Assembly: GCA_041664465.1 (NCBI GenBank)
Contig: JBAYKP010000002.1
Span: 21,190-85,189 of the forward strand
Direction of reading: 5' to 3'
DNA: 64,000 nucleotides
Source of the DNA: Minisyncoccota bacterium
Lineage (GTDB): Bacteria > Patescibacteriota > Minisyncoccia > Phycocordibacterales > UBA9973
Part shown: in pieces, positions 7,764-56,479 of the stretch
Layout of the letters: the number at the start of each line of letters is the position of its first letter
How positions within the stretch are numbered: the stretch's first letter is position 1
The notes under the pieces: model-generated
What the model saw: only the letters and a program-made list of their open reading frames with translations
Told to the model about the DNA's origin: nothing
Database searches by the model: none
Made by a program: the position numbers and the translations under genes

Positions 7764-8180
7764 ATGTTAACACCGAAAAAAGTAAAATATAGAAAATGGC
7801 AAACAAGTAGAACTGATATGACGAAAGTCACTCCAGACACTCGTGGTATTACTGTGGCTTTTGGAGCTTATGGACTTAAGGCTATCTCAGGTGGACGTGT
7901 TCGTGCAAATCAGATAGAATCAGCTCGTAAAGCAGGGCACAGAGCTCTCGGTAAGACTGGACGTATGTGGACTCGCATATTCCCTGACAGACCTTTCACC
8001 GCAAAGCCTGCTGAAGTAGGAATGGGAAAAGGAAAAGGAGATCCACAAGGTTATTGTTTGGATGTTCGTCCAGGTAGAATACTTTTTGAAGTAGATGGAA
8101 TAGGCGAAGTTATGGCCAAAGAAGCTCTTCGCAAAGCAGGGACCAAATTACCAGTGAAAACTCGCATCGTAGCAAGATAA
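7764..8180 (+). CDS. rplP: 50S ribosomal protein L16
   Basis: [11 protein letters not shown] ... typical L16. Confidence 0.95.
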
Positions 8181-16547: not shown

Positions 16548-16586
16548 CACTGCCCCCAAGCAAGGCTTGGGGGCAGTGTGTATTTT
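16548..16586 (+). terminator. Strong terminator hairpin (13-bp stem cactgcccccaag/cttgggggcagtg + T-run)
   Basis: Read directly. Confidence 0.75.
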
Positions 16587-16601: not shown

Positions 16602-16607
16602 TATAAT
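16602..16607 (+). promoter_or_regulatory. -10 box (tataat) 6 nt before the ATG of Cys-rich paralog 1; leaderless candidate
   Basis: Motif and spacing. Confidence 0.4.
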
Positions 16608-16613
16608 GAATTA

Positions 16614-18362
16614 ATGGAATCACAAACTAAAGTGTGTCAAAATTGTAAGCTTAATTTCACAATTGAGCCAGATGATTTTTCATTTTACGAAAAGATAAAA
16701 GTCCCTCCACCAACTTGGTGCCCTTATTGTAGGTTTATACGTAAAATGACATTTATTAACGAGCGTTCTCTTTATAAAAGAGTTTGTGATAATTGTAGTC
16801 AGTCTATGATATCTATGTATAGCCCTGATATACCACTTCCTGTTTGGTGCAATAAATGTCATATAAGTGATACTTGGGACGGAACTATATATAGTAGAGA
16901 TTATGATTTCTCTAGAAATTTTTTTGAACAATATAAAAAATTAAAATATGATGTTCCTCATAGGGCGCTTGATCAAAACGAGCGAAATGGCGAAGGGTGT
17001 GAGTATTCCAATCTATGTTACACCAGTAAAAACATATATTTATCTTTTAATATTATTGGTTCTGAAAATCTTAAGTATTCGGCACATGCTTTTAAGAATA
17101 ATAAAAATTGTTTAGATTCACTTATTTTTAAAAATAATGATAGGGGGTATGAGCTTGTTCAGGCTATTTCTAATTACAACTCATCTTTTTTAATTGAAAG
17201 TGACCAATGTGTAGATTCACATTTCCTTTATGATTGTTCTAATTGTGTTAATTGTTGTTTATCTTCAAATCTTCGAAATAAAAGTTATTTTTTTCAAAAT
17301 CAACAGTTATCGCGTGAAGAATATAAAAAGGCAGTTATGGCGCTTAGACTTGAGACATATTCTGGGCAATTAAATACTAAGAATATTTTTATGCAAATAG
17401 CAAAAGATGCAATTCATAAATACGCGCATATAAAGAATTCAGTAGATGTTATTGGAGATTTTATTGAAAATTCAAAAAATATTTACCATTGCTATGGTCT
17501 TGTAGATGCTATAAATACTAAATATGTATTTTTTGCAGTAAATACAATTGTAGATTCTCAAGATGTAATATTTGCAGGAAAAGTAGAGGAGTGCTATGAG
17601 TTTACTCTTGGTGGTAGGGGAGCTAGTCGTGTAATTTTATCTTTTAGTTGTTCTGGGGGGTGCAAGGATCTATTCTATTGTGATTCGTGTATGAGTTGTT
17701 CAGATTGTTTTGGCTGTGTAGGGTTAAAAAAGAAACAGTATTATATTTTTAATAAACAATATAAGAAGGAAGAGTATTTTGAAATGGTTAAGAAAATTAA
17801 ACAACACATGAATGATATGCCTTATATAGATAAGATTGGTAGAATATATAGCTTTGGGGAATGTTTCCCTACAGAACTTTCTCCTTTTGCTTACAATGAA
17901 ACTCTTGCTTTTAAAGAGAATTTTATCTCAAAAGAAGAAGTAATCTCTTTGGGATATAAATGGAAAGAAATGGAATCAAAGTTATATACTCCAACACTTA
18001 AAACAGATTCTGTGCCAGAGAGTATTAATGATGCTCTAGACACTATTTGTAATGAGATTATTGAGTGTCCCAATCAAGGCAAAGTAGATACACAATGCAC
18101 TTCAGCTTATAAAATATTACCAGATGAGTTAGCATTTTATAGACAAATGAATCTTCCAATACCTAGGTATTGTCCGAATTGTAGATATCACAATCGTTTA
18201 ATTTGGAAGAATCTTTTTCACTTTTACAAACGACAATGTATGTGTAATTCATCAAATCATAATCATAAAGGAAAATGTCAGAATGAATTTGAGACATTGT
18301 ATGCTCCCGACAGAGAAGAATTAATTTATTGTAAAGAATGTTATCAACAGGAAGTGTATTAA
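16614..18362 (+). CDS. Cysteine-rich paralog 1 (582 aa, about 37 Cys), unknown family. Has N- and C-terminal CPxCR zinc-ribbon-like modules and internal CxxCxxC clusters.
   Basis: Shares an N-terminal CQNCKxxFTIEPDDFSFYEKIKVPPPTWCPxCR block, a central KHMNDMPYIDKxGRIYxxGExFPxELSPFAYNET block and a C-terminal CQNEFETxYAPDRxExxYCxxCYQ block with the ORFs at 18401 and 29308. Confidence 0.7.
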   Translation: MESQTKVCQNCKLNFTIEPDDFSFYEKIKVPPPTWCPYCRFIRKMTFINERSLYKRVCDNCSQSMISMYSPDIPLPVWCNKCHISDTWDGTIYSRDYDFSRNFFEQYKKLKYDVPHRALDQNERNGEGCEYSNLCYTSKNIYLSFNIIGSENLKYSAHAFKNNKNCLDSLIFKNNDRGYELVQAISNYNSSFLIESDQCVDSHFLYDCSNCVNCCLSSNLRNKSYFFQNQQLSREEYKKAVMALRLETYSGQLNTKNIFMQIAKDAIHKYAHIKNSVDVIGDFIENSKNIYHCYGLVDAINTKYVFFAVNTIVDSQDVIFAGKVEECYEFTLGGRGASRVILSFSCSGGCKDLFYCDSCMSCSDCFGCVGLKKKQYYIFNKQYKKEEYFEMVKKIKQHMNDMPYIDKIGRIYSFGECFPTELSPFAYNETLAFKENFISKEEVISLGYKWKEMESKLYTPTLKTDSVPESINDALDTICNEIIECPNQGKVDTQCTSAYKILPDELAFYRQMNLPIPRYCPNCRYHNRLIWKNLFHFYKRQCMCNSSNHNHKGKCQNEFETLYAPDREELIYCKECYQQEVY

Positions 18363-18400: not shown

Positions 18401-20170
18401 ATGGATTATAAACCAGAAAATAGAATATGTCAGAATTGTAAGAAAGACTTCACTATTGAGCCAGACGATTTTTCATTTTATGAGAAGATGAAAGTCCCTC
18501 CGCCAACTTGGTGTCCTGAATGTCGTTTTCAAAGAAGGTGTCTTTTCCGTAACGAAAGAAAACTTTTCCGAAATATAGATGGAGTTACTGGTAAGCCAAT
18601 ATTTTCACTTTTTCCATTGGAGGCACATTTTCCAATTTATGAAGATAGTTATTGGGCAAGTGATAATTGGGACCCATTTTCTTATGGGATGGACTTTGAT
18701 AGGTCACGACCATTTTTAGCCCAACTCTTAGAGTTGAATTCAAAGGTACCACGTCCTCGCTCTGATGCTATAAATATGGTAAGAAGTGAATATTCTGCAA
18801 ATGCTGCAGACTTAAAAGATTGTTATTTGATTTTTAATTCAAGCTATACAGAAGATTCAGCATATGGAAATGCCAATGATTATTGCAAAAATTGCTTTGA
18901 TAATTCTCATATTCAAAATTCAGAGAAATGTTATGAATCATTTTGGCTTACTAAATGTTATGATACACATTTTTCTTCACAATGCGAGGATTGTGTTTCA
19001 GTTTGGTTTAGTAAAAATTGTCGTGGATGTACGGATTGTTTTGGCTGTGTAAACTTAACAAATAAATCTCATTGCTTTTTCAATCAATCTTTATCAAAAG
19101 AAGAATACAAAGAAAAGATAAAATCACTTGATTTTTCAAAATGGTCAAATCTCGAAAGAATAAAAAAACAAGTTGGAAAAATATGGTTGAATTTTCCTGT
19201 TAGATATCTTCAAGGTATTAAAAATTATTTATCTGATGGCGAATATGTTGCTTATTCAAAAAATGTTCGTCATAGCTACTTAGTTCGAGGGGGAGAAAAT
19301 CTTGCCTATGTGCAATATGTTCAAGTTCCATCATTAAAAGATTCTATGGATGTTATTGTGGGTGGTTGTAATAGTGAGTTAGTATATGAATCTTCAGCTT
19401 GTGGTTGGGATTCTTCACAAATTCGTTTTAGTATTGAGTGTTGGGACGGGGGAATGGATTTTGAATACAGTATGTTTTGTGGAAAGAAAGCCAGTCATAC
19501 ATTTGGTAGTATTAGTATTTGTAGTGGGGAATATGTTATTTTAAATAAAAGATATTCCAAAGAAGAATTTTATAAACTTAGAGATGAAATACGTAAGCAT
19601 ATGGATGAAATGCCATATATAGATAAAAATGGACGTATTTATAAATATGGCGAATTTCTTCCACCTGAGTTTTCCCCTTTTGCATACAACGATACGATAA
19701 CTCCGGAACATTTTCCTTTATCAAAAGAAGAAATAATCTCCTATGGTGCCAATTGGTATGAGATACCAAAAGTTGATTATGAAACAACAATGAAAGCCAA
19801 AGATATACAGGATGATATAAATGATGTATCGGAAGGTATTTTAAAAGAGATTATTTCTTGTGATAAATGTAATCGTGCTTATAGAATAATTCCTTCCGAA
19901 TTACAATTTTTAAAACAAAACCATATTCCAGTTCCTCGTAGTTGTGTGAATTGTCGTCATGATTTACGTATTTCACAAAGAAATAAAAGTAAACTGTATA
20001 AAAGAAAATGTAATTGTAATGGGAACAATTCAACAAATAATAAATATAAAAATGAAATCAGACATTCCCATGACACCGAAGCTTGCCAAAACGAATTTGA
20101 AACATCTTACTCCCCAGATAGACCAGAGATAGTGTATTGCGAAAAGTGCTATCAGCAAGAAATTTATTGA
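18401..20170 (+). CDS. Cysteine-rich paralog 2 (589 aa), same unknown family
   Basis: Conserved N-terminal, central and C-terminal blocks with 16614 and 29308. Confidence 0.7.
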   Translation: MDYKPENRICQNCKKDFTIEPDDFSFYEKMKVPPPTWCPECRFQRRCLFRNERKLFRNIDGVTGKPIFSLFPLEAHFPIYEDSYWASDNWDPFSYGMDFDRSRPFLAQLLELNSKVPRPRSDAINMVRSEYSANAADLKDCYLIFNSSYTEDSAYGNANDYCKNCFDNSHIQNSEKCYESFWLTKCYDTHFSSQCEDCVSVWFSKNCRGCTDCFGCVNLTNKSHCFFNQSLSKEEYKEKIKSLDFSKWSNLERIKKQVGKIWLNFPVRYLQGIKNYLSDGEYVAYSKNVRHSYLVRGGENLAYVQYVQVPSLKDSMDVIVGGCNSELVYESSACGWDSSQIRFSIECWDGGMDFEYSMFCGKKASHTFGSISICSGEYVILNKRYSKEEFYKLRDEIRKHMDEMPYIDKNGRIYKYGEFLPPEFSPFAYNDTITPEHFPLSKEEIISYGANWYEIPKVDYETTMKAKDIQDDINDVSEGILKEIISCDKCNRAYRIIPSELQFLKQNHIPVPRSCVNCRHDLRISQRNKSKLYKRKCNCNGNNSTNNKYKNEIRHSHDTEACQNEFETSYSPDRPEIVYCEKCYQQEIY

Positions 20171-21260: not shown

Positions 21261-21337
21261 TAAGGGCAGAAATATTCAGGAGAGCTATTCAAAAAATCTA
21301 GATACCAACATTTATAGATCATTTTTTCTTTTTCTTG

Positions 21338-21346
21338 TGGTATAAT
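21338..21346 (+). promoter_or_regulatory. Extended -10 (tggtataat) 6 nt upstream of the ATG at 21353
   Basis: Motif and spacing. Confidence 0.45.
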
Positions 21347-21352
21347 AAAACT

Positions 21353-24085
21353 ATGGAAGGATTAAATCTAAACAATGCTCCTAAATTTAAAACCCCAGAA
21401 GAAGAGTTGGTATTTTTGCGTGCTCACTTGGCTGAACATGAGAAGAAACTCAATGAAAAAGGGCAAGAAGTAAACAAAGAAGATATTGCTCACAATTTAA
21501 TCTCTGAATATAGAAAGCTTGAGCCGACAGATGTAATGCATAAAAGTGCCGTGATAAATAAAAATGAAGCTGAAGGCTTAGTCTTGCGATTAAAGCCTGA
21601 GAATCACGACAGTAAAATGGAAGAGCTTCTCGGTATTCTCTTGGATAAAGGTATTTCCAATACTCTTTCCATTGTGGCGAAGATGAATAATCCTCACCTA
21701 GATGATGACTTTCACCGTTTCCTTGTCCAGTATTTATACAGTACTCATAAAGTGCCGGGGCTTAAAGAAGGCACTCCTCTTTTCAAATCTCTTGATATGA
21801 AACTTTTCGAAATTACTCTGCCTGATGTCAGCGAAGATGATAAAGACAAGAAAGGTTTGAAAGAATTACTCTCTGCCATGGAGCAATTCTATGCTGGTAT
21901 GCATTCAGTCGGAGAAGGAAGAGAGAATTATAATAGAAATCATTTTACTTTAGAGATTGCCCTCGCTGAAGGGACGGACAGCTTCATCTTTTATGTCGCA
22001 GTACCTACTCACAAGGCAGAATTATTTGAAAAGCAATTACTTGGAGTTCATTTAAATGCGAAAATTACAGAAGTTCCTGATGATTATAATATTTTCTCTC
22101 CCAATGCATTTATCAGTGCCTCTTATGCAACCTTGGCTCATCACGAAGTCTATCCGATAAAGCTCTATGATACGATTGATCATGATCCACTCAATATAAT
22201 TCTAAATGTTTTCACTAAATTAAAAAAGCATGGAGAAGGTGCTTCTATTCAGTTCACTATTTGTCCGGAAGATGAAGATATTATCAGGAAGTTTCATATT
22301 ATCCATTCGGATGTGAAAAGTGGTATGTCTGTACGTACCGCTTCGAGTATGACTCGCCAAGTGACCAAGGAATTGAAAAATATAGCCAGCGAATTATTCT
22401 TCGGAGCTTCTAAAAAGAAAGAAGAGAAGCAAGTGAATGATAAAGCTGTGGAATATATTGGAGAGAAGTTGAAGAGTACCATAATGGCTACCAATATTCG
22501 TATCATCGCTTCAGCTGAATCGCAATTACGCTCAGAGCAAATATTATCTGAAATAGAATCTTCTTTCAATCAATTCACCGAAGCCGATCGCAATGGGTTT
22601 AACTTTAATCATCCTAAGGGGGGCTCACTTATGAATCTCATTCACGATTTTTCTTATAGAACATTTTCAGATGATTATTCTATGCCACTTAATCTTAAGG
22701 AGCTTGCTACTATTTTCCACTTTCCGAATAGCATTGTATCTTCACAGCTCAAGCAGGCTAAGGCCGGCTTTGCCCCAGCCCCACTTGAAATGGGCAATGA
22801 AGGAATTCTACTTGGTATCAATAGTTTCAGGGGCAAAGATACAGAGGTACGAATGAGTCGCGAAGACAGACTCCGTCATATGTATGTCATTGGTCAGACG
22901 GGTACAGGTAAGACGACAATATTGAAAAATATGATTGCCCAAGATATCAAGAATGGCGATGGCTGTTGCTTTATCGATCCACACGGTAGTGATATCCAGG
23001 ATATACTTTCTTATGTGCCCAAAGAAAGAATTGACGATGTCATTTACTTTGACCCTGCTTATACTGCTCGTCCGATGGGGCTTAATATGCTCGAGTATGA
23101 TCCGAAATATCCCGAGCAGAAGACTTTCGTCGTGAACGAATTGATGAGTATTTTCAATAAACTTTTTACGAAAGAATCTATGGGCCCTATGTTTGAGCAA
23201 TATTTTAAGAATAGTGCCTTCCTGGCAATGGATGATCCGAACAATCATGCCACTCTTCTAGACATCACTCGCATCTTAGGCAATAAAGAGTATAGAGATT
23301 CACTTTGTGAAAAATGTAAGAATCCTATTATCAAAGAATTTTGGGTTAATGCTGAGAAAACAACAGGGGACCAATCCATCGCCAACTTTGTACCATATAT
23401 TTCATCCAAATTTGATAACTTTATTTCCAACGATATAATGCGCCCTGTTGTTCTCCAAGAAAAATCTTCATTTAACTTCCGTGAAATAATGGACAATAAA
23501 AAGATTCTTCTGATAAACCTTTCAAAGGGAAGACTTGGAGATATCAATGCTAATCTCATTGGGCTTCTACTTGTGGGGAAGATTCAGATGGCAGCACTTT
23601 CTCGTGTAGATATGTATGGGCAAAAGATGAATGACTTCTATCTTTATATTGATGAATTCCAGAATGTGACGACTGATTCTATTGCCTCTATTCTTTCTGA
23701 GGCACGTAAGTATCGCTTGTCCTTAACTGTTGCTCACCAATATATTTCTCAGCTAGAAGAAAAAATAAAGGATGCTGTCTTCGGCAACGTCGGCTCGATG
23801 GCTGTCTATCGTATCAGCTCTGAAGATGCAGTCGCCGTAGAACCGAAATTCAAACCAACTTTCACCGCAGCGGATATTATGAAGCTTGATAATTTCAATT
23901 CATATGTGAGTATGCTTATAGGTGGAGTACCGACGAAGCCTTTCAGTATGACTTCCCATTGGAGTCTCACTCCCAAAGGCAACACTGAGATAGTAGATAA
24001 AATAAAAGAATTATCATATCTCAAATACGGCCGTCTCCGCGAAGAGGTAGAAGAGGAAATAATGAATAAATACAGAAAAGAATAA
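21353..24085 (+). CDS. VirB4/VirD4-superfamily (type IV secretion-type) P-loop ATPase with a roughly 480 aa N-terminal domain of unknown function
   Basis: Walker A GQTGTGKTT followed by IDPHGS, Walker B LYIDEF and a C-terminal AHQYISQL motif, all typical of TraC/VirB4/TraG-like ATPases. No N-terminal TM segment. The ORF-track TTG start at 21335 is replaced by the ATG at 21353. Confidence 0.55.
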   Translation: MEGLNLNNAPKFKTPEEELVFLRAHLAEHEKKLNEKGQEVNKEDIAHNLISEYRKLEPTDVMHKSAVINKNEAEGLVLRLKPENHDSKMEELLGILLDKGISNTLSIVAKMNNPHLDDDFHRFLVQYLYSTHKVPGLKEGTPLFKSLDMKLFEITLPDVSEDDKDKKGLKELLSAMEQFYAGMHSVGEGRENYNRNHFTLEIALAEGTDSFIFYVAVPTHKAELFEKQLLGVHLNAKITEVPDDYNIFSPNAFISASYATLAHHEVYPIKLYDTIDHDPLNIILNVFTKLKKHGEGASIQFTICPEDEDIIRKFHIIHSDVKSGMSVRTASSMTRQVTKELKNIASELFFGASKKKEEKQVNDKAVEYIGEKLKSTIMATNIRIIASAESQLRSEQILSEIESSFNQFTEADRNGFNFNHPKGGSLMNLIHDFSYRTFSDDYSMPLNLKELATIFHFPNSIVSSQLKQAKAGFAPAPLEMGNEGILLGINSFRGKDTEVRMSREDRLRHMYVIGQTGTGKTTILKNMIAQDIKNGDGCCFIDPHGSDIQDILSYVPKERIDDVIYFDPAYTARPMGLNMLEYDPKYPEQKTFVVNELMSIFNKLFTKESMGPMFEQYFKNSAFLAMDDPNNHATLLDITRILGNKEYRDSLCEKCKNPIIKEFWVNAEKTTGDQSIANFVPYISSKFDNFISNDIMRPVVLQEKSSFNFREIMDNKKILLINLSKGRLGDINANLIGLLLVGKIQMAALSRVDMYGQKMNDFYLYIDEFQNVTTDSIASILSEARKYRLSLTVAHQYISQLEEKIKDAVFGNVGSMAVYRISSEDAVAVEPKFKPTFTAADIMKLDNFNSYVSMLIGGVPTKPFSMTSHWSLTPKGNTEIVDKIKELSYLKYGRLREEVEEEIMNKYRKE

Positions 24086-28354: not shown

Positions 28355-28430
28355 TTTGTTTGCCGATAGAAATAAATAGATTACCTACCTAAATAGAATA
28401 CTAGCATATTTGTGTTATTATGGCAATACG

Positions 28431-29231
28431 ATGGATAACGTTATAAAAGTATATAAAAAGGTAGGTGAGACGCCTCTAGATTGCATTCAAAATCTCAAAA
28501 AAGATAGGCCAGAACTGGGCCTTTTACCTATGACTTATGCAGGACGGCTTGATCCGTTAGCAGAAGGGGTGCTTTTACTCCTTGTAGGTGAGGAATGTAA
28601 GAAGAAAGATGAATATCTTAATCTACACAAAGAGTATGAGGTAGAAGTTCTCTTTGGTTTCGCGACGGATACATATGATGTATTGGGAAAAGTCACTCCG
28701 TCGGAAATACTATTTAAAAGGTCCAGGGACCTGGGGGACGGGAGCCGGTGCCAGACCATTTCAAATCGCTCATCCTTTGACTTCGTTTTGCCTCTAAAGA
28801 AGATCCTTCCAAATTTTATTGGCAAGATAAAACAATCATATCCACCGTATTCTTCTCGTCCAGTAAATGGCAAGCCGTTGTTTATGTGGGCGAGGGAAGG
28901 GAAGCTAGGTGAGATAGAGATACCTACGCACAATGTGCAAATAGATAATATAGAAATAATGGGGCAAGATTTTATAAAAGGAAATGAACTTTTGGAAAAT
29001 ATTAAAGATAAAATTTCAAAAGTGAAAGGTGATTTTAGACAAGAAGAAATATTAAAAACTTGGGAGAAAGAATTGAAAGACAAAAAAGAAGAAAAATATC
29101 CTATAATTAAATTAAGAATTTCTTGTGGCAGTGGGGCCTATATGCGAAGTATTGCCAATGACATAGGGGAGAAGCTAAGCATCCCCGCTCTTGCCCTCAA
29201 AATAGTCCGCACAAAAGTAGGAGATTACTAA
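28431..29231 (+). CDS. truB: tRNA pseudouridine synthase (TruB family) with an internal GC-rich insertion
   Basis: YAGRLDPLAEGVLLLLVGE motif. The ATG at 28431 is preferred. Confidence 0.65.
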   Translation: MDNVIKVYKKVGETPLDCIQNLKKDRPELGLLPMTYAGRLDPLAEGVLLLLVGEECKKKDEYLNLHKEYEVEVLFGFATDTYDVLGKVTPSEILFKRSRDLGDGSRCQTISNRSSFDFVLPLKKILPNFIGKIKQSYPPYSSRPVNGKPLFMWAREGKLGEIEIPTHNVQIDNIEIMGQDFIKGNELLENIKDKISKVKGDFRQEEILKTWEKELKDKKEEKYPIIKLRISCGSGAYMRSIANDIGEKLSIPALALKIVRTKVGDY

Positions 29232-29234
29232 ATT

Positions 29235-29279
29235 CCCCAGAACTTACGCTATAGCGTAAGTTCTGGGGAATTTGTTTTT
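29235..29279 (+). terminator. Terminator (15-bp stem ccccagaacttacgc-tata-gcgtaagttctgggg + T-run)
   Basis: Read directly. Confidence 0.8.
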
Positions 29280-29293
29280 AGGGGTATTTAATA

Positions 29294-29299
29294 TATAAT
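29294..29299 (+). promoter_or_regulatory. -10 box (tataat) 8 nt before the ATG of paralog 3
   Basis: Motif and spacing. Confidence 0.35.
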
Positions 29300-29307
29300 T
29301 TAATCAT

Positions 29308-31029
29308 ATGAAAAGTGAGACGAAAAACTGCCAGAATTGCAAAAAAGACTTTACTATTGAGCCAGATGATTTTTCTTTTTATGAGAAAATAAAAGTCCCT
29401 CCGCCAACCTTTTGCTCGGAATGTAGAATGATACGAAGGATGATTTGGAGAAATGAGAGGTCTTTTTATCATCGTAATTGTGATTTGTGTGGAGAAAAGA
29501 TAATTTCAGTTTTTGATGATAAAAATTTGAAAATTTATTGCCAGAATTGTTGGCTTAGTGATAAATGGGAATCTTTGGAATATGGAGTAAATTATGATTT
29601 CTCCGCATCATTTTTTTCTCAGTATTCAGGTTTATATAAAAATATACCACTAATAAATTTAAATGGGCATATTTCAAATAAAAACTCACCGTATGTAAAT
29701 TATATTGTTCAGGCTAATAATTGCTATTTTTGTTTTGGTGGAGGATATATAGAAAATGTTATGTTTTCTAATGTTGGGGTAAGAATAAAAGATTCAATGG
29801 AAATATTTTTCTCAATGGATTGTGAATTTTGTTATGAAATATTAAATTGTCAGAAATGTTATCGTATTTATTATGGAAATAATTTGAAAGACTGCATGGA
29901 TAGTTATTTTTTGCAGGACTGCGTGAATTGTAAGGACTGTATCATGTCCTGTAATTTAAGGAATAAATCTTATTGTTTTAAAAATCAACAATTAACTAAA
30001 GAAAAGTTTTTGGTCAAAAAAGAAGAATTTTTAAATAAACTACAGAAAAATATTTATTCTCTTAAAAATGAATTTAAGGAAGTATTGATTAAAAGTCCTA
30101 AAAAATTTGCCAATATTTTGAAATCAGAATTTTCTACAGGTGATAATATCTCTGAAAGTTCACGAGTGGTAAATAGTTTTAATATTTCTAAGAGTGAAAA
30201 TTGTAAAAATTCACAAGATATAGTTGGAGTTGCTCGTGATATCTACGATACAACAAGTGCTGGGTTAGGACTGGAAAATATGTATGAATCAATGTCTGTA
30301 AGTATGAATATTTTGAATTCATTTTTTTCTTTATCAATAAGAAATGATTCTTTTAATATAAATTATTCTTTTGGGTTAACTTCATGTTCCAACTGCTTCG
30401 CCTGCATCGGTCTCCGCTCCAAACAATACTGCATCCTCAACCGCCAATACACCAAAGAAGAATACGAGAGCCTTGTCCCCAAAATCATAAAGCATATGAA
30501 CGACATGCCCTATATAGATAGTAAAGGTAGAATCTACAAATACGGTGAATTCTTCCCAAGTGAACTCTCACCCTTTGCCTACAACGAAACCATAGCCCAA
30601 GAATACTTCCCATTAACAAAGGATGAAGCTCTACAACAAGGCTACAAATGGAAAGACAAGGAAGAACGTAACTACAGTATAGATATACATACAGAAAACA
30701 TCCCAGATTCCATTAAAGACATACCTGATACAGATATCCTAAACAAAGTCATAGAATGTAACCATAAAGGAACCTGTAATCAACAATGTACAGAAGCCTA
30801 TAAGATTATACCCGAAGAACTATCCTTCTACAGACGTATGAATTTACCTCTACCTCGTCTCTGTCCTAACTGTAGACACTATGAACGTCTTTCTCAACGA
30901 AACCCTATGAAATTATGGCATAGAGCCTGTATGAAGCCTGGATGTACCAATGAATTTGAGACATCTTATGCTCCAGAGAGACCGGAGATTGTTTATTGTG
31001 AGAAGTGTTATCAGGGGGAGGTGTATTAA
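29308..31029 (+). CDS. Cysteine-rich paralog 3 (573 aa), same unknown family as 16614 and 18401
   Basis: Same N-terminal, central and C-terminal conserved blocks. Confidence 0.7.
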   Translation: MKSETKNCQNCKKDFTIEPDDFSFYEKIKVPPPTFCSECRMIRRMIWRNERSFYHRNCDLCGEKIISVFDDKNLKIYCQNCWLSDKWESLEYGVNYDFSASFFSQYSGLYKNIPLINLNGHISNKNSPYVNYIVQANNCYFCFGGGYIENVMFSNVGVRIKDSMEIFFSMDCEFCYEILNCQKCYRIYYGNNLKDCMDSYFLQDCVNCKDCIMSCNLRNKSYCFKNQQLTKEKFLVKKEEFLNKLQKNIYSLKNEFKEVLIKSPKKFANILKSEFSTGDNISESSRVVNSFNISKSENCKNSQDIVGVARDIYDTTSAGLGLENMYESMSVSMNILNSFFSLSIRNDSFNINYSFGLTSCSNCFACIGLRSKQYCILNRQYTKEEYESLVPKIIKHMNDMPYIDSKGRIYKYGEFFPSELSPFAYNETIAQEYFPLTKDEALQQGYKWKDKEERNYSIDIHTENIPDSIKDIPDTDILNKVIECNHKGTCNQQCTEAYKIIPEELSFYRRMNLPLPRLCPNCRHYERLSQRNPMKLWHRACMKPGCTNEFETSYAPERPEIVYCEKCYQGEVY

Positions 31030-32489
31030 AATATTACTTTCTTTGCTTCCTCAAATAATTCATCTATTCTTTCTTGAGTTTTTGCTTCACCGAAGAGTTT
31101 AATTATTGGTTCTGTATTTGAAGGACGAAGGTGGAGCCAAGAACTATCCGGTAAGTCTAGGCGTAGGCCATCTTGTTCATCATATGTAGCATCTTTAAAA
31201 TGCTCTTTCAATTTAATGTACATTTGTTTTAGGTCAGAGCCCAATGGCCATTTATCTTTCTTTATTATATATTTTGGCAATTCTTCCATCAGTTCACTTA
31301 TAGTTTTATTTCTCTCTGCCATAAGTTCAAGGATTAAAGCAAGTCCCGTAAAACTATCACGGACTGTATTTATAATAGGGTAGATTATTCCACCATTTCC
31401 TTCACCTCCAACTATTGCATTATGAGCTAGTATTCCTTCTACGACGAATCCTTCGCCAATTTTAGTTCGGAATGTTTCACTTCCATATTTTTTAGCTACA
31501 TCAGCTCCTCTTTGTGAAGTAGAAAGATTAAGCACTATAGGCTTACCTGGATGTTTTGATATCACATTTTCTATTACCAATGCTATAGAATTTTCTTCTG
31601 ACTCCACAATTCCTTTATCACTTACCAATACCAGCCTATCAGCATCAGGATCATGGACGAAGCCTACATCTACTTTTTTTTCAACAACTAATTTTTCTAT
31701 ATCGCCTAGATTCTCACGAAGAGGCTCTGGTCTGTGCCCGAATTTACCATTAGGGATATTGTTTAAGGGATATACTTCTACTCCTAGTTGTTCAAATAAA
31801 TAAGGATCCATCACACAAGCTGAAGCATTGATCATATCAACAGCTACTTTGAATTTCTTAGCACGGATTACTTCTACATTTATATTTTCTAATATTTTAT
31901 CAGCATGTTCTTTGAGAAAGTTTGGTGTAATGTTAGATGGATTTTCGCTCGACTCATTATTCCCGTCAGCACGCGATAAAATTCTACTGAATTTTTCGCT
32001 AGTGCTCGGCTCGACAGCCTGTGCAATGCTTCCTGGAACAATGAGTTCTCGCTCAAATCCATCCCGTTCGAATTTCTTAATTTCTTCTTCATAATATTTA
32101 TTTATCCTTTCTACTTCTTCATTTACAGTGAAAAGAGCTTTATCATTTACAAATTTGAGGCCGTTATATTCTATTGGGTTATGACTTGCGGTAATTATTA
32201 TAGCTCCATCATATCCGTGTTTACGAACAGAGAATAGAACTGTCGGCGTTGGAAGTATATCTCCATATACTGCTTCTACTCCCAGATTTTTTAATTCATT
32301 TAGAATTATTTCTCTTATCTCAGGTCCAGACTCACGACCATCTCTGCCAATTAAAATAGTAGGATGTTCCTTTTTTTCTTTTAAAAATGAAACGAAAGCA
32401 CGCGTATATAAAATAACCACCTCTTTACTAAGTGATTCACCCCAGATACCTCTATATCCAGAGACATTAATTCTTTGTTTAAATTCCAT
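31026..32489 (-). CDS. Phosphohexomutase (phosphoglucosamine mutase / phosphomannomutase family) carrying an in-frame repeat-element insertion
   Basis: GAIIITASHNP (active Ser), DPDADR, GGEGNGG and RPSNTEP motifs. The inserted peptide GSIAQAVEPSTSEKFSRILSRADGN is encoded by the repeat at 31951-32047. The ATG at 32489 is preferred over 32546. Confidence 0.8.
   Translation of the reverse strand: MEFKQRINVSGYRGIWGESLSKEVVILYTRAFVSFLKEKKEHPTILIGRDGRESGPEIREIILNELKNLGVEAVYGDILPTPTVLFSVRKHGYDGAIIITASHNPIEYNGLKFVNDKALFTVNEEVERINKYYEEEIKKFERDGFERELIVPGSIAQAVEPSTSEKFSRILSRADGNNESSENPSNITPNFLKEHADKILENINVEVIRAKKFKVAVDMINASACVMDPYLFEQLGVEVYPLNNIPNGKFGHRPEPLRENLGDIEKLVVEKKVDVGFVHDPDADRLVLVSDKGIVESEENSIALVIENVISKHPGKPIVLNLSTSQRGADVAKKYGSETFRTKIGEGFVVEGILAHNAIVGGEGNGGIIYPIINTVRDSFTGLALILELMAERNKTISELMEELPKYIIKKDKWPLGSDLKQMYIKLKEHFKDATYDEQDGLRLDLPDSSWLHLRPSNTEPIIKLFGEAKTQERIDELFEEAKKVIF
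31951..32047 (+). repeat. Palindromic repeat element copy C, in-frame inside the phosphohexomutase gene
   Basis: The core attcccgtcagcacgcgataaaattct..ctgaatttttcgctagt..ctcgg...gcttcctggaaca is shared with 48461-48542. Flanked by inverted gactcatt / aatgagt. Confidence 0.8.
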
Positions 32490-32526
32490 TCCTTTATAAT
32501 ACCAGTTTTTGAGGAATGAGGGAATA

Positions 32527-32952
32527 TTATTGAAAACTAATTTCAAATGGATACATTCCCATACCGCAGGAGCCGTTTAGGGTGCCGGCTGGTTGTGTAC
32601 TGAGGTCTATATCTGTACTTCCTGATTGTGGGAGACTTTTAAAGATATTCATAGAAGGAATTCTGACAGAAGAAGAGCAATCAAAAGTTCCATTTGTGTT
32701 AAATCTTAAAATTGTAGGAATTCCTGCCTTTGCAATACTTTTCCTTGGTTGGTAACCACCTTTAGCATTTATCTCTATAATTTGTTTACCATCTACTACC
32801 GAAACATTCTTTATAGAAGTTTCTTGTGTTGTTCCAGTACTATTATTACTAGAATCATTTGATTGATTACTTGTTTTTCCACTCGTAAGAACAATAGCAA
32901 ATATAATTAATGCCGCTGATACTACTATTGAGATGATTGTGTTTTTTGTCAT
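32527..32952 (-). CDS. Cupredoxin-like domain membrane-anchored protein
   Basis: C-terminal GSCGMGMYPFEI resembles the cupredoxin-like Y-x-C-x3-H/x-x2-M motif. Paralog of 44140-44499. Confidence 0.45.
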   Translation of the reverse strand: MTKNTIISIVVSAALIIFAIVLTSGKTSNQSNDSSNNSTGTTQETSIKNVSVVDGKQIIEINAKGGYQPRKSIAKAGIPTILRFNTNGTFDCSSSVRIPSMNIFKSLPQSGSTDIDLSTQPAGTLNGSCGMGMYPFEISFQ

Positions 32953-38515: not shown

Positions 38516-39547
38516 TTATACCCCGCACCCTTGTTGTTTTTGTTGTTGCGGAGCTTGAGCAGGTGCTCCTCCGACATCGCATCCACCTCCTTTTTGTTGC
38601 GTACTTTCAGGCTGTGTAACTTGTGTTTTTATATTTGCAAATCCTTGGCTACTTGAATAATCTGCCCCAAGTATTTCTTGTGCATTTATATTTTTCCATT
38701 CTACCCCCTTACTCTTCATGTAAGTTGCTATTGTTACATATGTATCAGGGAACCAGTATGAATTGACAGTTAAGGCTGTGCTCCACATCTCTTGTTCACT
38801 TGCACCTTGTGAAGCCATTAATTCTAATAGTCCAAGCATTGCCATTCCGTGGTTGCAATCAGGAAAATGAACTGAGTTTCCACAGCAAGGTCTATATATA
38901 CCACGAGATACTTTGTCTACAAGAGCTTGTTGCTCTGGTGTTAAGTTAAAGAATACGTGTTTACTGTAGTGATCCATTGCTCCACCTTTGGCAATAGTCC
39001 AACCTCCAGTTGAAGCAAAGTTTCCTGCTCCACCATATTTAGGATCCATCATTTCTCCTTTCTCTAATATTTCATTCTTATTAGCCAAGCCAAGTGCCCA
39101 GAATAGATTGAGTAAATATCCCGAATTTTCATTGGTTATTTTTATTTTACCGTTACCTATTCCTTCAAGTAATCTTTTATCTTCATCTGTTAATTGACCT
39201 CTATCTTTATAGAGAGCTTTGAATTTGTCTGCATCGATTGCTCCAGATTCAGTCAACTTTACTCCAAGGTCTCCCCATTTAACATTTAGTGTTACTCCTT
39301 TAGCAGGAATTACTTTTTGTTCTAGGGCGGATACTTGGACTTCTTCTTTGGTTGATGAAGGGGTGCCTTTATTTGTTGCATAGACTAAAGATCCCCCGAT
39401 AATAATGGCCGCTAATAATATACTCCCAGGTAGTATATAATTTTTTTCTTTTTTATCAGAAATTATTTCTTCTTTTGGAAGTTCTTCTAATATTATTATT
39501 TCTTCTTCTTTCAATTCTTCAACTTCATTATTTTCTTCGTTTTTCAT
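38516..39547 (-). CDS. Membrane-anchored hypothetical protein with a Cys/His cluster (RPCCGNSVHFPDCNHGMAM)
   Basis: TM anchor after an acidic N-terminus. No family recognised. Confidence 0.4.
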   Translation of the reverse strand: MKNEENNEVEELKEEEIIILEELPKEEIISDKKEKNYILPGSILLAAIIIGGSLVYATNKGTPSSTKEEVQVSALEQKVIPAKGVTLNVKWGDLGVKLTESGAIDADKFKALYKDRGQLTDEDKRLLEGIGNGKIKITNENSGYLLNLFWALGLANKNEILEKGEMMDPKYGGAGNFASTGGWTIAKGGAMDHYSKHVFFNLTPEQQALVDKVSRGIYRPCCGNSVHFPDCNHGMAMLGLLELMASQGASEQEMWSTALTVNSYWFPDTYVTIATYMKSKGVEWKNINAQEILGADYSSSQGFANIKTQVTQPESTQQKGGGCDVGGAPAQAPQQQKQQGCGV

Positions 39548-47785: not shown

Positions 47786-47858
47786 CCGCACTTAGCTCAG
47801 TTGGTAGAGCAATCCGCTTATACCGGATCGGTCCTAGGTTCAAGTCCTAGAGTGCGGA
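47786..47858 (+). tRNA. tRNA, anticodon TAT by manual fold (tRNA-Ile UAU)
   Basis: Manual cloverleaf: acceptor ccgcact/agtgcgg, D arm agctcagttggtagagc, anticodon stem atccg/cggat with loop cttatac, T arm ctagg-ttcaagt-cctag, discriminator A. No encoded CCA. Confidence 0.65.
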
Positions 47859-47863
47859 CAATT

Positions 47864-50565: not shown

Positions 50566-50596
50566 AATATTAGTATAGCAAAAAATTACAATTTTG

Positions 50597-50683
50597 CGGA
50601 GCCGGCTGGATTCGAACCAGCGGGGGAATTTACTCCCCGCCTCTTTAGCAAAGAGGTAGATTAAACCACTCTCCCACGGCTCC
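50597..50683 (-). tRNA. tRNA-Ser (anticodon GCT), class II with long variable arm
   Basis: Reverse complement folds as ggagccg ... cctct-ttgctaa-agagg ... long variable arm ... gctgg-ttcgaat-ccagc ... cggctcc-g. Confidence 0.75.
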
Positions 50684-50774
50684 CTAAATACATTTATACC
50701 TTATCATATTTAACATTATTACTCAAAAATTTGGATTTTATATTTCAAGATAAATATGCTAATATGAGAAAACT

Positions 50775-50864
50775 GGATGAGTGGCCGAGAGGCTTAAGGC
50801 AGCGGTTTACTAAACCGCCGTTCTGTAAAAAGAACCGTGAGTTCGAATCTCACCTCATCCGCCA
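50775..50864 (+). tRNA. Class II (long-variable-arm) tRNA with encoded CCA and an atypical anticodon loop (ttactaa; canonical reading gives anticodon ACT)
   Basis: Acceptor ggatgag/ctcatcc, discriminator G, CCA encoded, T arm gtgag-ttcgaat-ctcac, anticodon stem gcggt/accgc. Identity unresolved. Confidence 0.5.
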
Positions 50865-54605: not shown

Positions 54606-54640
54606 AAGAGAGCAGATATGTTCTGCTCCCTTTTTTAAGT
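54606..54640. terminator. Bidirectional terminator (gagagcaga-tatg-ttctgctc + flanking A and T runs) between convergent genes
   Basis: Read directly. Confidence 0.6.
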
Positions 54641-56479
54641 TAAAGATCTTGCGGATCTATTTATAGGATTTTCCAGAATTGCTGGTATTTGCCAAATTCT
54701 GGAATTTAAATTACTAGTACCAAGTATAATCTTACTTTTTAAATTACGATTTGCCATTCTTACAAATGGCTCTACTTCAATACTGTAAGGCATAGCTCGC
54801 CTCGGGTCTTTTTTAACAATGGCAGAATAAACTTGTAAGACATAATTACCAAGTCCTTCATCTAAAGTCATTTTTAATATTAACTCTAGTGAATCAATAG
54901 AAAGTGGTTTCTTATTATCATACATATTCAACAATCTTGTAATTTCATTATTTTTATACAATGTAATAGCAAAATCATTTGTTTTATCTGACTCCTCATT
55001 TACCCTAGGGATGGAAGACCTAAGACGATAGCATTTACTAATTATTTCTTTTAGTTCCATGCGTGTCTCAGGATTTTGCTCGGCGTGATTTTTGTAGATG
55101 TTGATTATTTGCAAAATTAGATTTGCGTCCATTCTTGTCATAAACTTAGCCCTTCCCCTGATTATTTCAAATAAACTTATCGATTGATTTAAAGTAAATT
55201 TGGTATTCAGAAAATTCAATCTGTTCATTACTAAATTCATACCCTCATCAGACTTTAGAAGTATACAAGTTTTAATAATGTATAAGATGGAAGAACAATG
55301 CATGATTTTTGATACGCTAAACTTAAATAAATCCAAAGCTTCACCATCAAACTTTCTAGTATATGCATTTAATAGTGTAGACAGGATGTTGTGATTAAAT
55401 GGCTGAATGGTATACAACTTTTTTATTTCACTGATGTCTTTAAAAGTTATATTCGGATCTAATTCTTTCTTATCACAAAAAGTAATACCATCGTTTATAA
55501 TCCTTTCTCTTTCCTCGGGAGTTTTTGTTACTAATTCAAGCGGTATTAATTGACCCGTCAATTCAGACAATCGATCTAAAAATACCACGCTGTTACTTTT
55601 TTGAAAAATATTCCAAAGAATAAGACTTTCTGTAGCGACATCATGCTGACTTTTTGCATATAAGCAAATAGGAATCAAAGATTGAATACCTCTTGCAAAA
55701 AGTTCTCTTCGTTTCTGATAGTTTTTCCCCGGAATGTGTAATTTCTCATAGTTCTTTTTAATAAACTCGAGTGGAAAATCTGGCCATGAGAACTTTTCAA
55801 ACGTAGAAAGACTAAAAGATTTTTTGCTGAGTTTTAATTCTGGAATTACTTCAAATATTATACTAGTGATATCATTATCTTTAAGATAAGAATGATACCA
55901 ATATAATGAAATGAGTATTATTTCAGATTTTATTTCAGCTAACTTATTTGCAATTAATCTTAAACTTGATTCTTGAATATTGCCCTTATTCAAGTCACTT
56001 ATGATTCTAAATGATTTAAAAAATAATTCATCCACGTTATGTACTTTCGTGTAGAAATTAAATAATTCATCAATAAGCTTATTTTTCTCCAAGTTATTAG
56101 CTTGATATAAAAATAAAGCTGTAACAGTTTGTACTCCAAGAGGTCGAATAACAAGTAGCATTATTACATTCTTATAAAGTGATAAATAATCTTGATTTTT
56201 TAGAAAATCACTTATAAATTCATTGCTCTTATTCCATCTGGTTTTCATTGCTTCTTCATAATTTAAATTAACATTTGTAATTCCACTTATAATTTCAGCA
56301 ATTTCATCAGACCAATCATCAGCATCTAAACTTGCCACTGCAAGTAATAAAGCCTTTGAATTCTCTTCTTGTTCTAAGTACTTTTTTATTTGGTTAATAA
56401 CTAGGGGAACCTCCATGTCGTGGAGATTTAAGTCGAGAAACTTCTCAACTTGTTCAGTAAAATTGGTAGCTTTTTTCAT
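54635..56479 (-). CDS. Large hypothetical protein (614 aa), no recognised domain
   Basis: Long intact ORF with protein-like composition. Confidence 0.4.
   Translation of the reverse strand: MKKATNFTEQVEKFLDLNLHDMEVPLVINQIKKYLEQEENSKALLLAVASLDADDWSDEIAEIISGITNVNLNYEEAMKTRWNKSNEFISDFLKNQDYLSLYKNVIMLLVIRPLGVQTVTALFLYQANNLEKNKLIDELFNFYTKVHNVDELFFKSFRIISDLNKGNIQESSLRLIANKLAEIKSEIILISLYWYHSYLKDNDITSIIFEVIPELKLSKKSFSLSTFEKFSWPDFPLEFIKKNYEKLHIPGKNYQKRRELFARGIQSLIPICLYAKSQHDVATESLILWNIFQKSNSVVFLDRLSELTGQLIPLELVTKTPEERERIINDGITFCDKKELDPNITFKDISEIKKLYTIQPFNHNILSTLLNAYTRKFDGEALDLFKFSVSKIMHCSSILYIIKTCILLKSDEGMNLVMNRLNFLNTKFTLNQSISLFEIIRGRAKFMTRMDANLILQIINIYKNHAEQNPETRMELKEIISKCYRLRSSIPRVNEESDKTNDFAITLYKNNEITRLLNMYDNKKPLSIDSLELILKMTLDEGLGNYVLQVYSAIVKKDPRRAMPYSIEVEPFVRMANRNLKSKIILGTSNLNSRIWQIPAILENPINRSARSLT

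Follow-up and report, generated by a model that had tools for sequence, protein, structure and literature searches.

A multi-copy family of cysteine-rich proteins in Paceibacteria and its genomic link to orphan VirD4-like ATPases

Introduction

Which function does a cysteine-rich protein serve that is encoded in three copies within a short piece of a bacterial chromosome and carries no name in any of them? This question is raised by a stretch of 64,000 nucleotides from a Minisyncoccota bacterium (NCBI GenBank assembly GCA_041664465.1, contig JBAYKP010000002.1, positions 21,190 to 85,189 of the forward strand), which is called the window in the following and counted from its first letter. The gene under study, here named gene A (29308..31029, + strand), starts with ATG and encodes a protein of 573 aa, of which 34 are cysteines (5.9% of the residues). 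It is deposited as MFA6392661.1, a "hypothetical protein" (WCW54_01045) of a Candidatus Paceibacterota metagenome-assembled genome (MAG), and its two paralogs in the window, B (WCW54_00990) and C (WCW54_00995), bear the same designation in the same MAG. The ultra-small Paceibacteria (Parcubacteria) rank with the most diverse and most abundant bacteria of the candidate phyla radiation (CPR), and their genomes comprise ~600-1,000 genes. Here, we describe a strong link in genomic context, not reported before, between the family of gene A and both orphan VirD4-like ATPases and the dnaK-dnaJ operon, and we weigh which role of the family would be in line with this link.

An unnamed family with many copies

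A word-indexed search with gene A, which was capped at 8,000 candidates, scored more than 7,028 matches. The best 120 matches are nearly all full-length (at least 93% query coverage) with 532-599 aa, and they have essentially no Pfam domain and no name beyond "hypothetical protein". A profile search with all three paralogs resulted in 4,569 clusters at 50% identity, of which 1,985 have an E-value <=1e-30, and among the species-representative genomes at least 586 stretches encode a relative. The informative source names are all Paceibacteria, namely Nomura-, Giovannoni-, Staskawicz-, Jorgensen-, Wolfe-, Lipton- and Sungii-bacteria as well as Minisyncoccia. The "uncultured Saccharibacteria" labels of third-party annotation (TPA) entries and one "Burkholderiales" MAG label are presumed to be labelling or binning noise. 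Locus L009 (JAMPXW010000002.1, 268 kb), from a "Burkholderiales bacterium" MAG, contains four family genes together with an order of genes for a type IV coupling protein (T4CP), DnaJ and CysRS that is typical of Paceibacteria, and a binning or labelling error is probable here. Multiple copies, arranged in tandem on one strand, are the usual state in the fetched loci, and 45 of the 83 sources have two or more copies within ~21 kb. The largest tandem arrays comprise 10 copies (locus L044, 124-20668), eight copies (L037, 98-15306) and seven copies (L024). The original prediction of an expanded family therefore holds even more strongly than it was made, with up to 10 tandem copies in 21 kb elsewhere. 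In L044, according to the open reading frame (ORF) lengths, ~79% of the 21.8-kb stretch is family coding sequence.

Linkage to orphan VirD4-like ATPases

For a forward context test, the neighbours of 183 family genes from the 83 family-centred sources were clustered. The most frequent neighbour is a T4CP-like ATPase, which is present in 27 of the 83 loci and directly adjacent in 23, whereas the next commonest neighbours, CutA1, DnaJ and a PaaX-like regulator, are adjacent in 7-8 loci. Two gene orders recur. The first one consists of DnaK, a long ATPase, one to four family genes, a short ATPase, DnaJ, a further family gene and a membrane protein, and ends with agmatinase and CysRS on the opposite strand. 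The long ATPase has ~700-800 aa with a zf_Tbcl_2 finger (E 1e-14) and a disordered tail, and the short ATPase has ~490 aa. The family profile aligns its second zinc module, which is described below, to the finger of the long ATPase. The second order consists of SecD, SecF, a Sigma70_r4 and HARE-HTH protein, a membrane protein with two transmembrane (TM) segments (cluster c6), a small protein (cluster c18), an ATPase and one to five family genes, sometimes followed by CutA, plus a second ATPase. The reverse context test started from the short ATPase and covered 80 independent metagenome loci around it. In 50 of these 80 loci a family gene adjoins an ATPase, and the arrangement from DnaK to DnaJ is seen again. 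Of the 28 loci that span at least 15 kb, 20 have the family adjacent, three within three genes and another three further away, and it is absent in two. The link of the family to the orphan ATPases and the dnaK-dnaJ operon is strong. On reading the sequence by eye, no N-terminal TM anchor was noticed in the orphan ATPases.

A survey from 2025 counted 5,713 VirD4-like T4CP homologues in 2,918 Patescibacteria genomes, which is ~2 per genome, and found just 148 of the 5,713 genes near virB4; the authors raise the possibility of exaptation (PMC12102498).

The short ATPase is conserved across Paceibacteria with 72-88% identity within the alignment (A4) and 80-96% identity to the metagenome loci (L083-L162). 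A protein for conjugation would be expected to be far less conserved, and an essential core role is therefore implied. Since many genomes have the ATPase-family cassette between dnaK and dnaJ, a machine made of the two would probably serve constitutive housekeeping under co-regulation with the chaperones rather than conjugation.

A separate observation concerns the long ATPases, which continue after the zf_Tbcl_2 finger with a low-complexity tail of ~250-300 aa ending in a conserved peptide, ..(R)EVPEDVLRKILE (L002 1314-3458, L007 2130-4394, L042 6126-8285, L055 4560-6746 and similar). Judged by its sequence, this peptide looks like a docking motif.

In the window itself, the genes follow each other in the order L18, S5, L15, SecY, Adk, AA-kinase, B, C and Map. 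Next comes, between C (1.2 kb away) and A (5.2 kb away), the gene of a 916-aa protein (21335..24085, + strand), the C-terminal half of which is a homologue of the VirD4/TrwB/TraG-type coupling ATPases. It matches TrwB_AAD_bind, T4SS-DNA_transf, DUF87 and TraG-D_C in Pfam, and in hhalign its C-terminal half fits the ATPase profile with a probability of 100% (E 6.5e-65) and 38% identity to the short-ATPase profile; in PADLOC it gives generic mad8/HerA P-loop models only. The N-terminal half weakly resembles the c6 membrane partner with its two TM segments, which is DUF8128-like (22% over 332 aa, E 4e-4). Regarding its layout, the 916-aa protein is a soluble domain fused to an ATPase, while the c6 counterpart is separately encoded in other genomes, and no N-terminal TM segment was noticed in it when the sequence was read by eye.

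Three old paralogs under purifying selection

Searched with gene A by tblastn, the window gave exactly two further copies, at 16614-18359 (E 1.8e-139) and 18410-20167 (E 5.9e-125). Paralog B (16614..18362, + strand, 582 aa) is located inside the spc ribosomal operon after SecY-Adk-AA kinase, and paralog C (18401..20170, + strand, 589 aa) follows 38 nt after B and ends 32 nt before Map. Global identity is 45% between A and B and 40% both between A and C and between B and C. Thus, gene A is indeed the third paralog with a 573-aa product that the original prediction had made of it. The longest nucleotide word common to any two copies has 17-20 nt, which excludes assembly duplication, as had been anticipated, and also recent gene conversion among A, B and C.

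The closest relatives in other genomes share 86% (A), 65% (B) and 53% (C) identity, compared to 40-45% within the own genome. As each copy is closer to its relatives in other genomes than to its own paralogs, the duplications are old. Simple positional orthology, with type A after dnaJ and types B and C after the long ATPase, was considered and is not clean, as there are many subfamilies. The ratio of non-synonymous to synonymous substitutions (dN/dS, Nei-Gojobori) is 0.078 for A against its ortholog in L003, with 0.072 in the variable centre, and 0.15 for B against its ortholog in L007; with an ortholog dS of 1.5-1.9, which is near saturation, these values are rough, though far below 1. The orthologs are therefore under purifying selection. 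Between the paralogs the synonymous sites are saturated (proportion of synonymous differences 0.63-0.76), and their dN/dS, which had been proposed as a check, is consequently uninformative.

Conservation is unevenly distributed along the protein. The motif KHMNDMPYID is found at aa 395-404 of gene A (nt 30490-30519), with the counterparts QHMNDMPYID in B and KHMDEMPYID in C. Three-paralog identity amounts to 0.39 in the N-terminal zinc modules, 0.05-0.21 in the centre, 0.40 in the core and 0.41 in the C-terminal zinc modules, and the ortholog column entropy is 1.8-2.3 in the centre versus 0.45-0.54 in the C-terminal third, in agreement with the earlier statement that the termini and the KHMNDMPYID core are conserved and the centre differs.

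Besides this, the 3' third of gene A (30360-31029) exhibits a sharp shift in codon usage. The fraction of third-position C rises from 0.04-0.14 in codons 1-350 to 0.50 in codons 351-400 and 0.36 in codons 401-450. The C-ending share is 0.48 of the two-fold Y codons and 0.37 of the four-fold codons in the 3' third, compared to 0.13 and 0.07 in the 5' part of the gene and 0.35 and 0.17 in the ribosomal-protein block. The shift is not present in paralogs B and C, and a weaker form occurs in A-type orthologs of other genomes. Recent horizontal transfer was rejected as its cause, as no blastn match of >80% nucleotide identity is confined to the 3' third. It could stem from selection for accuracy, from a mosaic origin or from a constraint at the nucleotide level. 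An Rfam scan of the window gave no RNA element within gene A and only a tmRNA and two tRNAs elsewhere.

Zinc modules flanking a repetitive centre

A first AlphaFold2 (AF2) model of the gene A product, based on close orthologs only, reached a mean predicted local distance difference test (pLDDT) of 73.5, and a second one, based on a diverse alignment of 140 sequences, reached a pLDDT of 93.0 with a predicted template modelling score (pTM) of 0.93. The following segment layout, all on the + strand, is taken from the second model. Zinc module 1 (29308..29457, aa 1-50) has the putative Cys ligands C8, C11, C36 and C39. Its hallmark is FY-x4-V-P-x-P-x2-C-x2-C-R followed by an Arg-rich helix, and its Cys residues are 94-97% conserved across the family. 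Zinc module 2 (29458..29571, aa 51-88) is a zf_Tbcl-like finger of the type CxxC-x16-CxxC (C58, C61, C78, C81), which is found in just about half of the family members and is degenerate or lost in paralog C. Helices (aa 89-112) come next. The centre begins with Cys-rich beta region 1 (29698..29997, aa 131-230), a region of variable sequence with ~12 Cys in CxxC rungs, continues with a helical hairpin insert (29998..30096, aa 231-263), which is the most variable segment, and ends with beta region 2 (30097..30453, aa 264-382), a series of short strands. The latter ends in the conserved FGCIGLRxKQYCILNxQY, which repeats the end of region 1. As both beta regions are closed by the same block, (N/G)LRxKxYCxxNxQxxKEEY, the centre itself is an internal duplication. 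A long helix (aa 383-399) then leads into the conserved acidic core (30454..30747, aa 383-480 including the helix), which contains KHMNDMPYID, is loop-rich, has a mean net charge of -6.4 and shows the lowest entropy of the protein. Zinc module 3 (30748..30903, aa 481-532; putative ligands C484/C490/C494 plus C519 and C522) is basic (+4.9), includes the invariant R523 and is a C-terminal copy of module 1 (FYRRMNLPLPRLCPNCR); the likeness is apparent from FSFYEKIKVPPPTFCSECR at the N-end and LSFYRRMNLPLPRLCPNCR at the C-end. Zinc module 4 (30904..31026, aa 533-573; C541, C546, C564, C567) is a zf_Tbcl_2 or LIM-like treble-clef finger.

A search of 2.4 Mb of loci for the terminal motif, in the form FY-x4-[VLI]-P-x-P-x2-C-x2-C-R, gave 468 occurrences. 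Of these, 243 are N-terminal and 195 C-terminal in long ORFs. The remaining 30 occurrences in shorter or contig-cut ORFs are taken to be truncated family genes, so that none of the 468 occurrences belongs to another protein architecture.

In beta region 1 the Cys-Cys distances are nearly all multiples of 3, with peaks at 3, 9/12/15 and 21/24/27, and the autocorrelation of hydropathy has its maximum at 12, whereas the C-terminal control region has no such pattern. This periodicity indicates that beta region 1 is made of rungs of ~12 residues, each with a CxxC. According to their sequence, the rungs might form either a Cys ladder or stacked Cys4 zinc sites.

The product has no signal peptide and no TM segment (maximum Kyte-Doolittle(19) score <=1.12), and the protein is predicted to be soluble and cytoplasmic.

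Comparison with known families and folds

Scans of A, B and C against Pfam, NCBIfam, PHROGs and PADLOC gave nothing above noise, including no match to the anti-phage defence models of PADLOC. Furthermore, full-text literature searches gave no description of the family, of DUF8128 or of PF23477. When 79 diverse members were scanned singly, the recurrent matches were the small "probable treble clef" fingers zf_Tbcl_2 (PF23477) in 38 (best E 1.1e-6) and zf_Tbcl (PF13451) in 27 of them. For PF23477, gene A has no match at E <=1, and B and C score 12 and 13.6 bits compared to a curated cut-off of 27; TIGR04272 scores 11.3 bits in B at a curated cut-off of 36. Gene A has two CxxC-type pairs ~17 residues apart at both ends, C58-x2-C61-x16-C78-x2-C81 and C541-x4-C546-x17-C564-x2-C567. 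Similar to zf_Tbcl_2, zf_Tbcl and TIGR04272, modules 2 and 4 have CxxC-x16/17-CxxC with ...VYCxxCY. However, these models are themselves uncharacterised and span ~35 of the 573 residues, which leaves ~500 residues with no model. Matches to Med15_N/KIX in 14 of the 79 members were rejected, because in B, the one case with coordinates, the match covers one helix (aa 377-402) of a three-helix domain.

When PDB sequences were searched, by single protein and by profile, the sole result was a weak LIM-like match, in which aa 531-569 of the profile align to WHxxC..C...(x17)..YCxxCY of the LIM second zinc finger (CRP1/CRP2/MLP; PDB 1ctl, 1b8t). With an E-value of 0.044 and half a domain matched, this resemblance is at the treble-clef level and does not indicate family membership. 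Foldseek searches of both AF2 models against PDB and BFVD gave nothing at E <=1e-3, and zinc-ribbon noise in BFVD. The weak matches of the confident model are all left-handed beta-helix enzymes (E 0.03-1.5, TM-score 0.07-0.18, root-mean-square deviation >12 A), namely GlmU, LpxA/D and gamma-carbonic anhydrase, the best of which is non-significant with an E of 0.032, and no Hexapep repeats were matched in Pfam in A, B, C or the 79 relatives. The best match of the first model, also non-significant (E 5.3), was the Cys-rich antifreeze beta-helix of Tenebrio, with which the central region shares a 12-residue repeat and regularly spaced Cys. Unlike this antifreeze protein, the gene A product is cytoplasmic with flanking zinc ribbons and has neither a signal peptide nor TCT repeats. 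Taken together, the protein is built of recognisable elements, treble-clef fingers and a solenoid-like repeat, and yet it is in no characterised family.

The place next to a coupling ATPase suggests a further comparison. Partners of T4CPs are usually encoded beside the coupling-protein genes. Like TraM, the Dot/Icm adaptors IcmS-IcmW-LvgA and the effectors of type IV secretion systems (T4SS), the family genes adjoin a VirD4/TrwB-type ATPase in one or more copies. However, the family has no sequence or fold similarity to any of these partners, and in contrast to the classical T4CP setting its ATPase neighbours are regarded as orphan, being away from virB4 (PMC12102498), show high conservation and belong to dnaK-dnaJ or SecDF neighbourhoods.

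Proposed role and alternatives

The reading that we tentatively prefer is that the family is a cytoplasmic multi-zinc partner, either adaptor or cargo, of the orphan VirD4-like ATPases. The family would act together with the hexameric ATPases of the T4CP type that Patescibacteria mostly carry away from any T4SS, and the family protein would be a substrate-recognition adaptor or the cargo of the ATPase. In this reading, docking would be the constant task of the conserved C-terminal third together with the terminal zinc modules, one of which presumably shares the Pfam finger type (zf_Tbcl_2) with the tail of the long ATPase, and the targets would differ between paralogs according to the variable beta region. 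Each of zinc modules 1 and 3 is followed by an Arg-rich helix, which suggests a nucleic acid as target or co-ligand. It is also conceivable, albeit somewhat more doubtful, that the family, the long and short ATPases and the c6 membrane protein constitute an undescribed Paceibacteria-wide machine located in dnaK-dnaJ/SecDF neighbourhoods, in which the paralogs would be interchangeable specificity subunits or cargoes of an exapted coupling ATPase and the centre would adopt a new solenoid fold of 12-residue repeats stapled by zinc or Cys.

Several points weigh against the partnership. The functional evidence is genomic context throughout. Gene A itself is not adjacent to the ATPase but 5.2 kb away from it, and its closest orthologs (L001, L003) follow MnmA with no T4CP within 8 kb. 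Among the 83 family-centred sources, 38 carry a single family copy, and no T4CP was called within the fetched sequence of 56, many of which are short contigs. The short ATPase is conserved with 72-96% identity and the family with 35-55%, which gives no sign of tight co-evolution. Synteny among housekeeping genes could reflect conserved gene order and no joint function. The finger that both share is a generic motif of small size, CxxC-x17-CxxC, and gene A is below the Pfam reporting level for zf_Tbcl_2. Moreover, Pfam, NCBIfam and PDB gave no match to a known relaxase or to a TraM-like or IcmS/W-like adaptor, and no known effector domain of T4CP systems was matched in Pfam or NCBIfam.

Some of the same features could be explained by a free-standing nucleic-acid-binding factor of translation or of RNA or DNA metabolism, with paralog-specific targets and an incidental ATPase neighbourhood. 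Arg and Asn residues in the basic helices after the zinc ribbons are conserved (R40, R44, N49, the invariant R523, R527 and R539), module 3 is positively charged, and the paralogs are old and under purifying selection, as would fit fixed targets. The neighbours also belong to translation: in the spc operon B and C are flanked by SecY/Adk and Map, TruB precedes A, and orthologs are found after MnmA and next to AlaRS or CysRS. However, translation genes are dense in CPR genomes and hence such a neighbourhood says little. The protein as a whole is acidic, with a mean net charge of -6.5, and neither A, B and C nor the 79 members matched a known RNA- or DNA-binding domain. Since neither the tandem arrays, with as many as 10 copies, nor the two-way linkage to the ATPases would be explained, we regard such a factor as unlikely.

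Since the dnaK-dnaJ operon is part of the conserved context, a role in proteostasis has to be considered too, in which the family would be a zinc-dependent holdase, a co-chaperone or a set of clients of the co-transcribed DnaK/DnaJ system. The order DnaK, long T4CP, zero to four family genes, short T4CP and DnaJ, sometimes followed by a family gene, was found in dozens of loci from two independent collections, and in L002 a family gene begins 2 nt after dnaJ. Like the cysteine-rich region of DnaJ, the family has repeated CxxC units ~10-12 residues apart, and its genes often directly follow dnaJ. In contrast to DnaJ, PF00684 (DnaJ_CXXCXGXG) was matched in 0 of the 79 members, as was any other chaperone domain, and the GxG signature is absent from the family consensus. 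There is no dnaK or dnaJ near A, B or C among the window ORFs scanned, and the second gene order with SecDF, the HARE-HTH protein, the membrane protein, the T4CP and the family contains no chaperones, which makes this role still less likely.

The high number of cysteines could also point to a metal or redox protein, either for zinc storage or buffering or as a Fe-S carrier. With 31-36 Cys, each protein has room for up to ~9 Cys4 sites, gene A has C205-x2-C208-x2-C211-x3-C215, CutA1 is adjacent in eight loci, and MgtC and HMA-domain genes are nearby. However, many Cys positions of beta region 2 are Ser in A, and a buffer needs neither a highly conserved acidic core nor old, individually conserved paralogs. 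A 4Fe-4S ferredoxin was rejected, since CxxCxxCxxxC in gene A has no Pro, the family consensus is C-x2-C-x2-C-x2-C, which is not ferredoxin spacing, and there is no match to Fer4 or any other ferredoxin or Fe-S model of Pfam. We therefore consider a metal or redox protein very improbable.

Least credible of all is the original prediction of an expanded family under diversifying evolution, understood here as local expansion by positive selection, for example in host interaction, which agrees with the multi-copy family and its variable centre but not with orthologs being closer than the old paralogs, with an ortholog dN/dS of 0.07-0.15 that includes the variable centre, with a product that has no signal peptide or TM segment, or with genes located in housekeeping operons and not in islands.

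Start region and neighbours of gene A

Gene A is located between a TruB-like pseudouridine synthase gene upstream (28410..29231, + strand) and a PGM/PMM phosphohexomutase gene with four PGM/PMM domains downstream (31026..32546, - strand). The latter is convergent with gene A, as had been noticed before, and the stop codons of both genes overlap within TTAA (31026-31029). There is no terminator between these two genes, as the 64 nt downstream of gene A fold at just -3.4 kcal/mol (z -0.8). On the upstream side, an intrinsic-terminator-like hairpin with a U-run (29229..29279, + strand) directly follows the TruB stop codon (29231) and terminates the TruB gene; the hairpin itself (29229-29274) has 20-21 bp and -34.8 kcal/mol (z = -8.7). 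A TATAAT -10 box (29294..29299, + strand) is located 8 nt before the ATG, with no Shine-Dalgarno (SD) sequence. Both the strong terminator and the position of the TATAAT had been predicted correctly. Paralog B has a similar upstream region, with a hairpin at 16548-16578 (-28.9 kcal/mol) and, 6 nt ahead of the ATG, a TATAAT (16602-16607), whereas paralog C has a hairpin with no U-run and no TATAAT. The hairpins before A and B are the terminators of the TruB and AA-kinase genes, respectively. Among the window ORFs, 12 of 75 have an exact TATAAT 6-10 nt before the start and 4 of 75 an SD-like 4-mer, which points to a wide use of leaderless or SD-independent initiation by this Paceibacterota genome. 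The start of gene A is of the leaderless type, and the TATAAT layout is a genome-wide feature: a terminator followed by TATAAT is the general leaderless-type start of first genes after the terminator of the previous gene. The claim that a common promoter and terminator architecture is a trait of the family thus has to be given up, as the arrangement is spread over other ORFs of the window and C has neither element.

Other observations in the window

ARAGORN predicted a tRNA-Ile with the anticodon TAT at 47786-47859 and two Ser tRNAs ~90 nt apart on opposite strands at 50596-50864, one of which has the unusual anticodon ACT. Rfam confirms the tRNA genes of the + strand, not the tRNA-Ser(GCT) of the - strand. 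Two ORFs on the - strand, 54635-56479 (614 aa) and 38516-39547 (343 aa), have no Pfam match at E <=1e-5.

Meaning for Paceibacteria

The novelty of these proteins is that of an uncharacterised family, and a confident model with no PDB neighbour together with a CxxC periodicity of 12 residues makes the centre a candidate for a new metal-stapled repeat fold. The family is also a concrete candidate partner for the orphan VirD4-like ATPases, which average ~2 per Patescibacteria genome. Since several copies of the 1.7-kb gene, and up to 10 within 21 kb, each under purifying selection, are maintained in many genomes of ~600-1,000 genes, an important and currently unnamed function of this family in Paceibacteria is implied.

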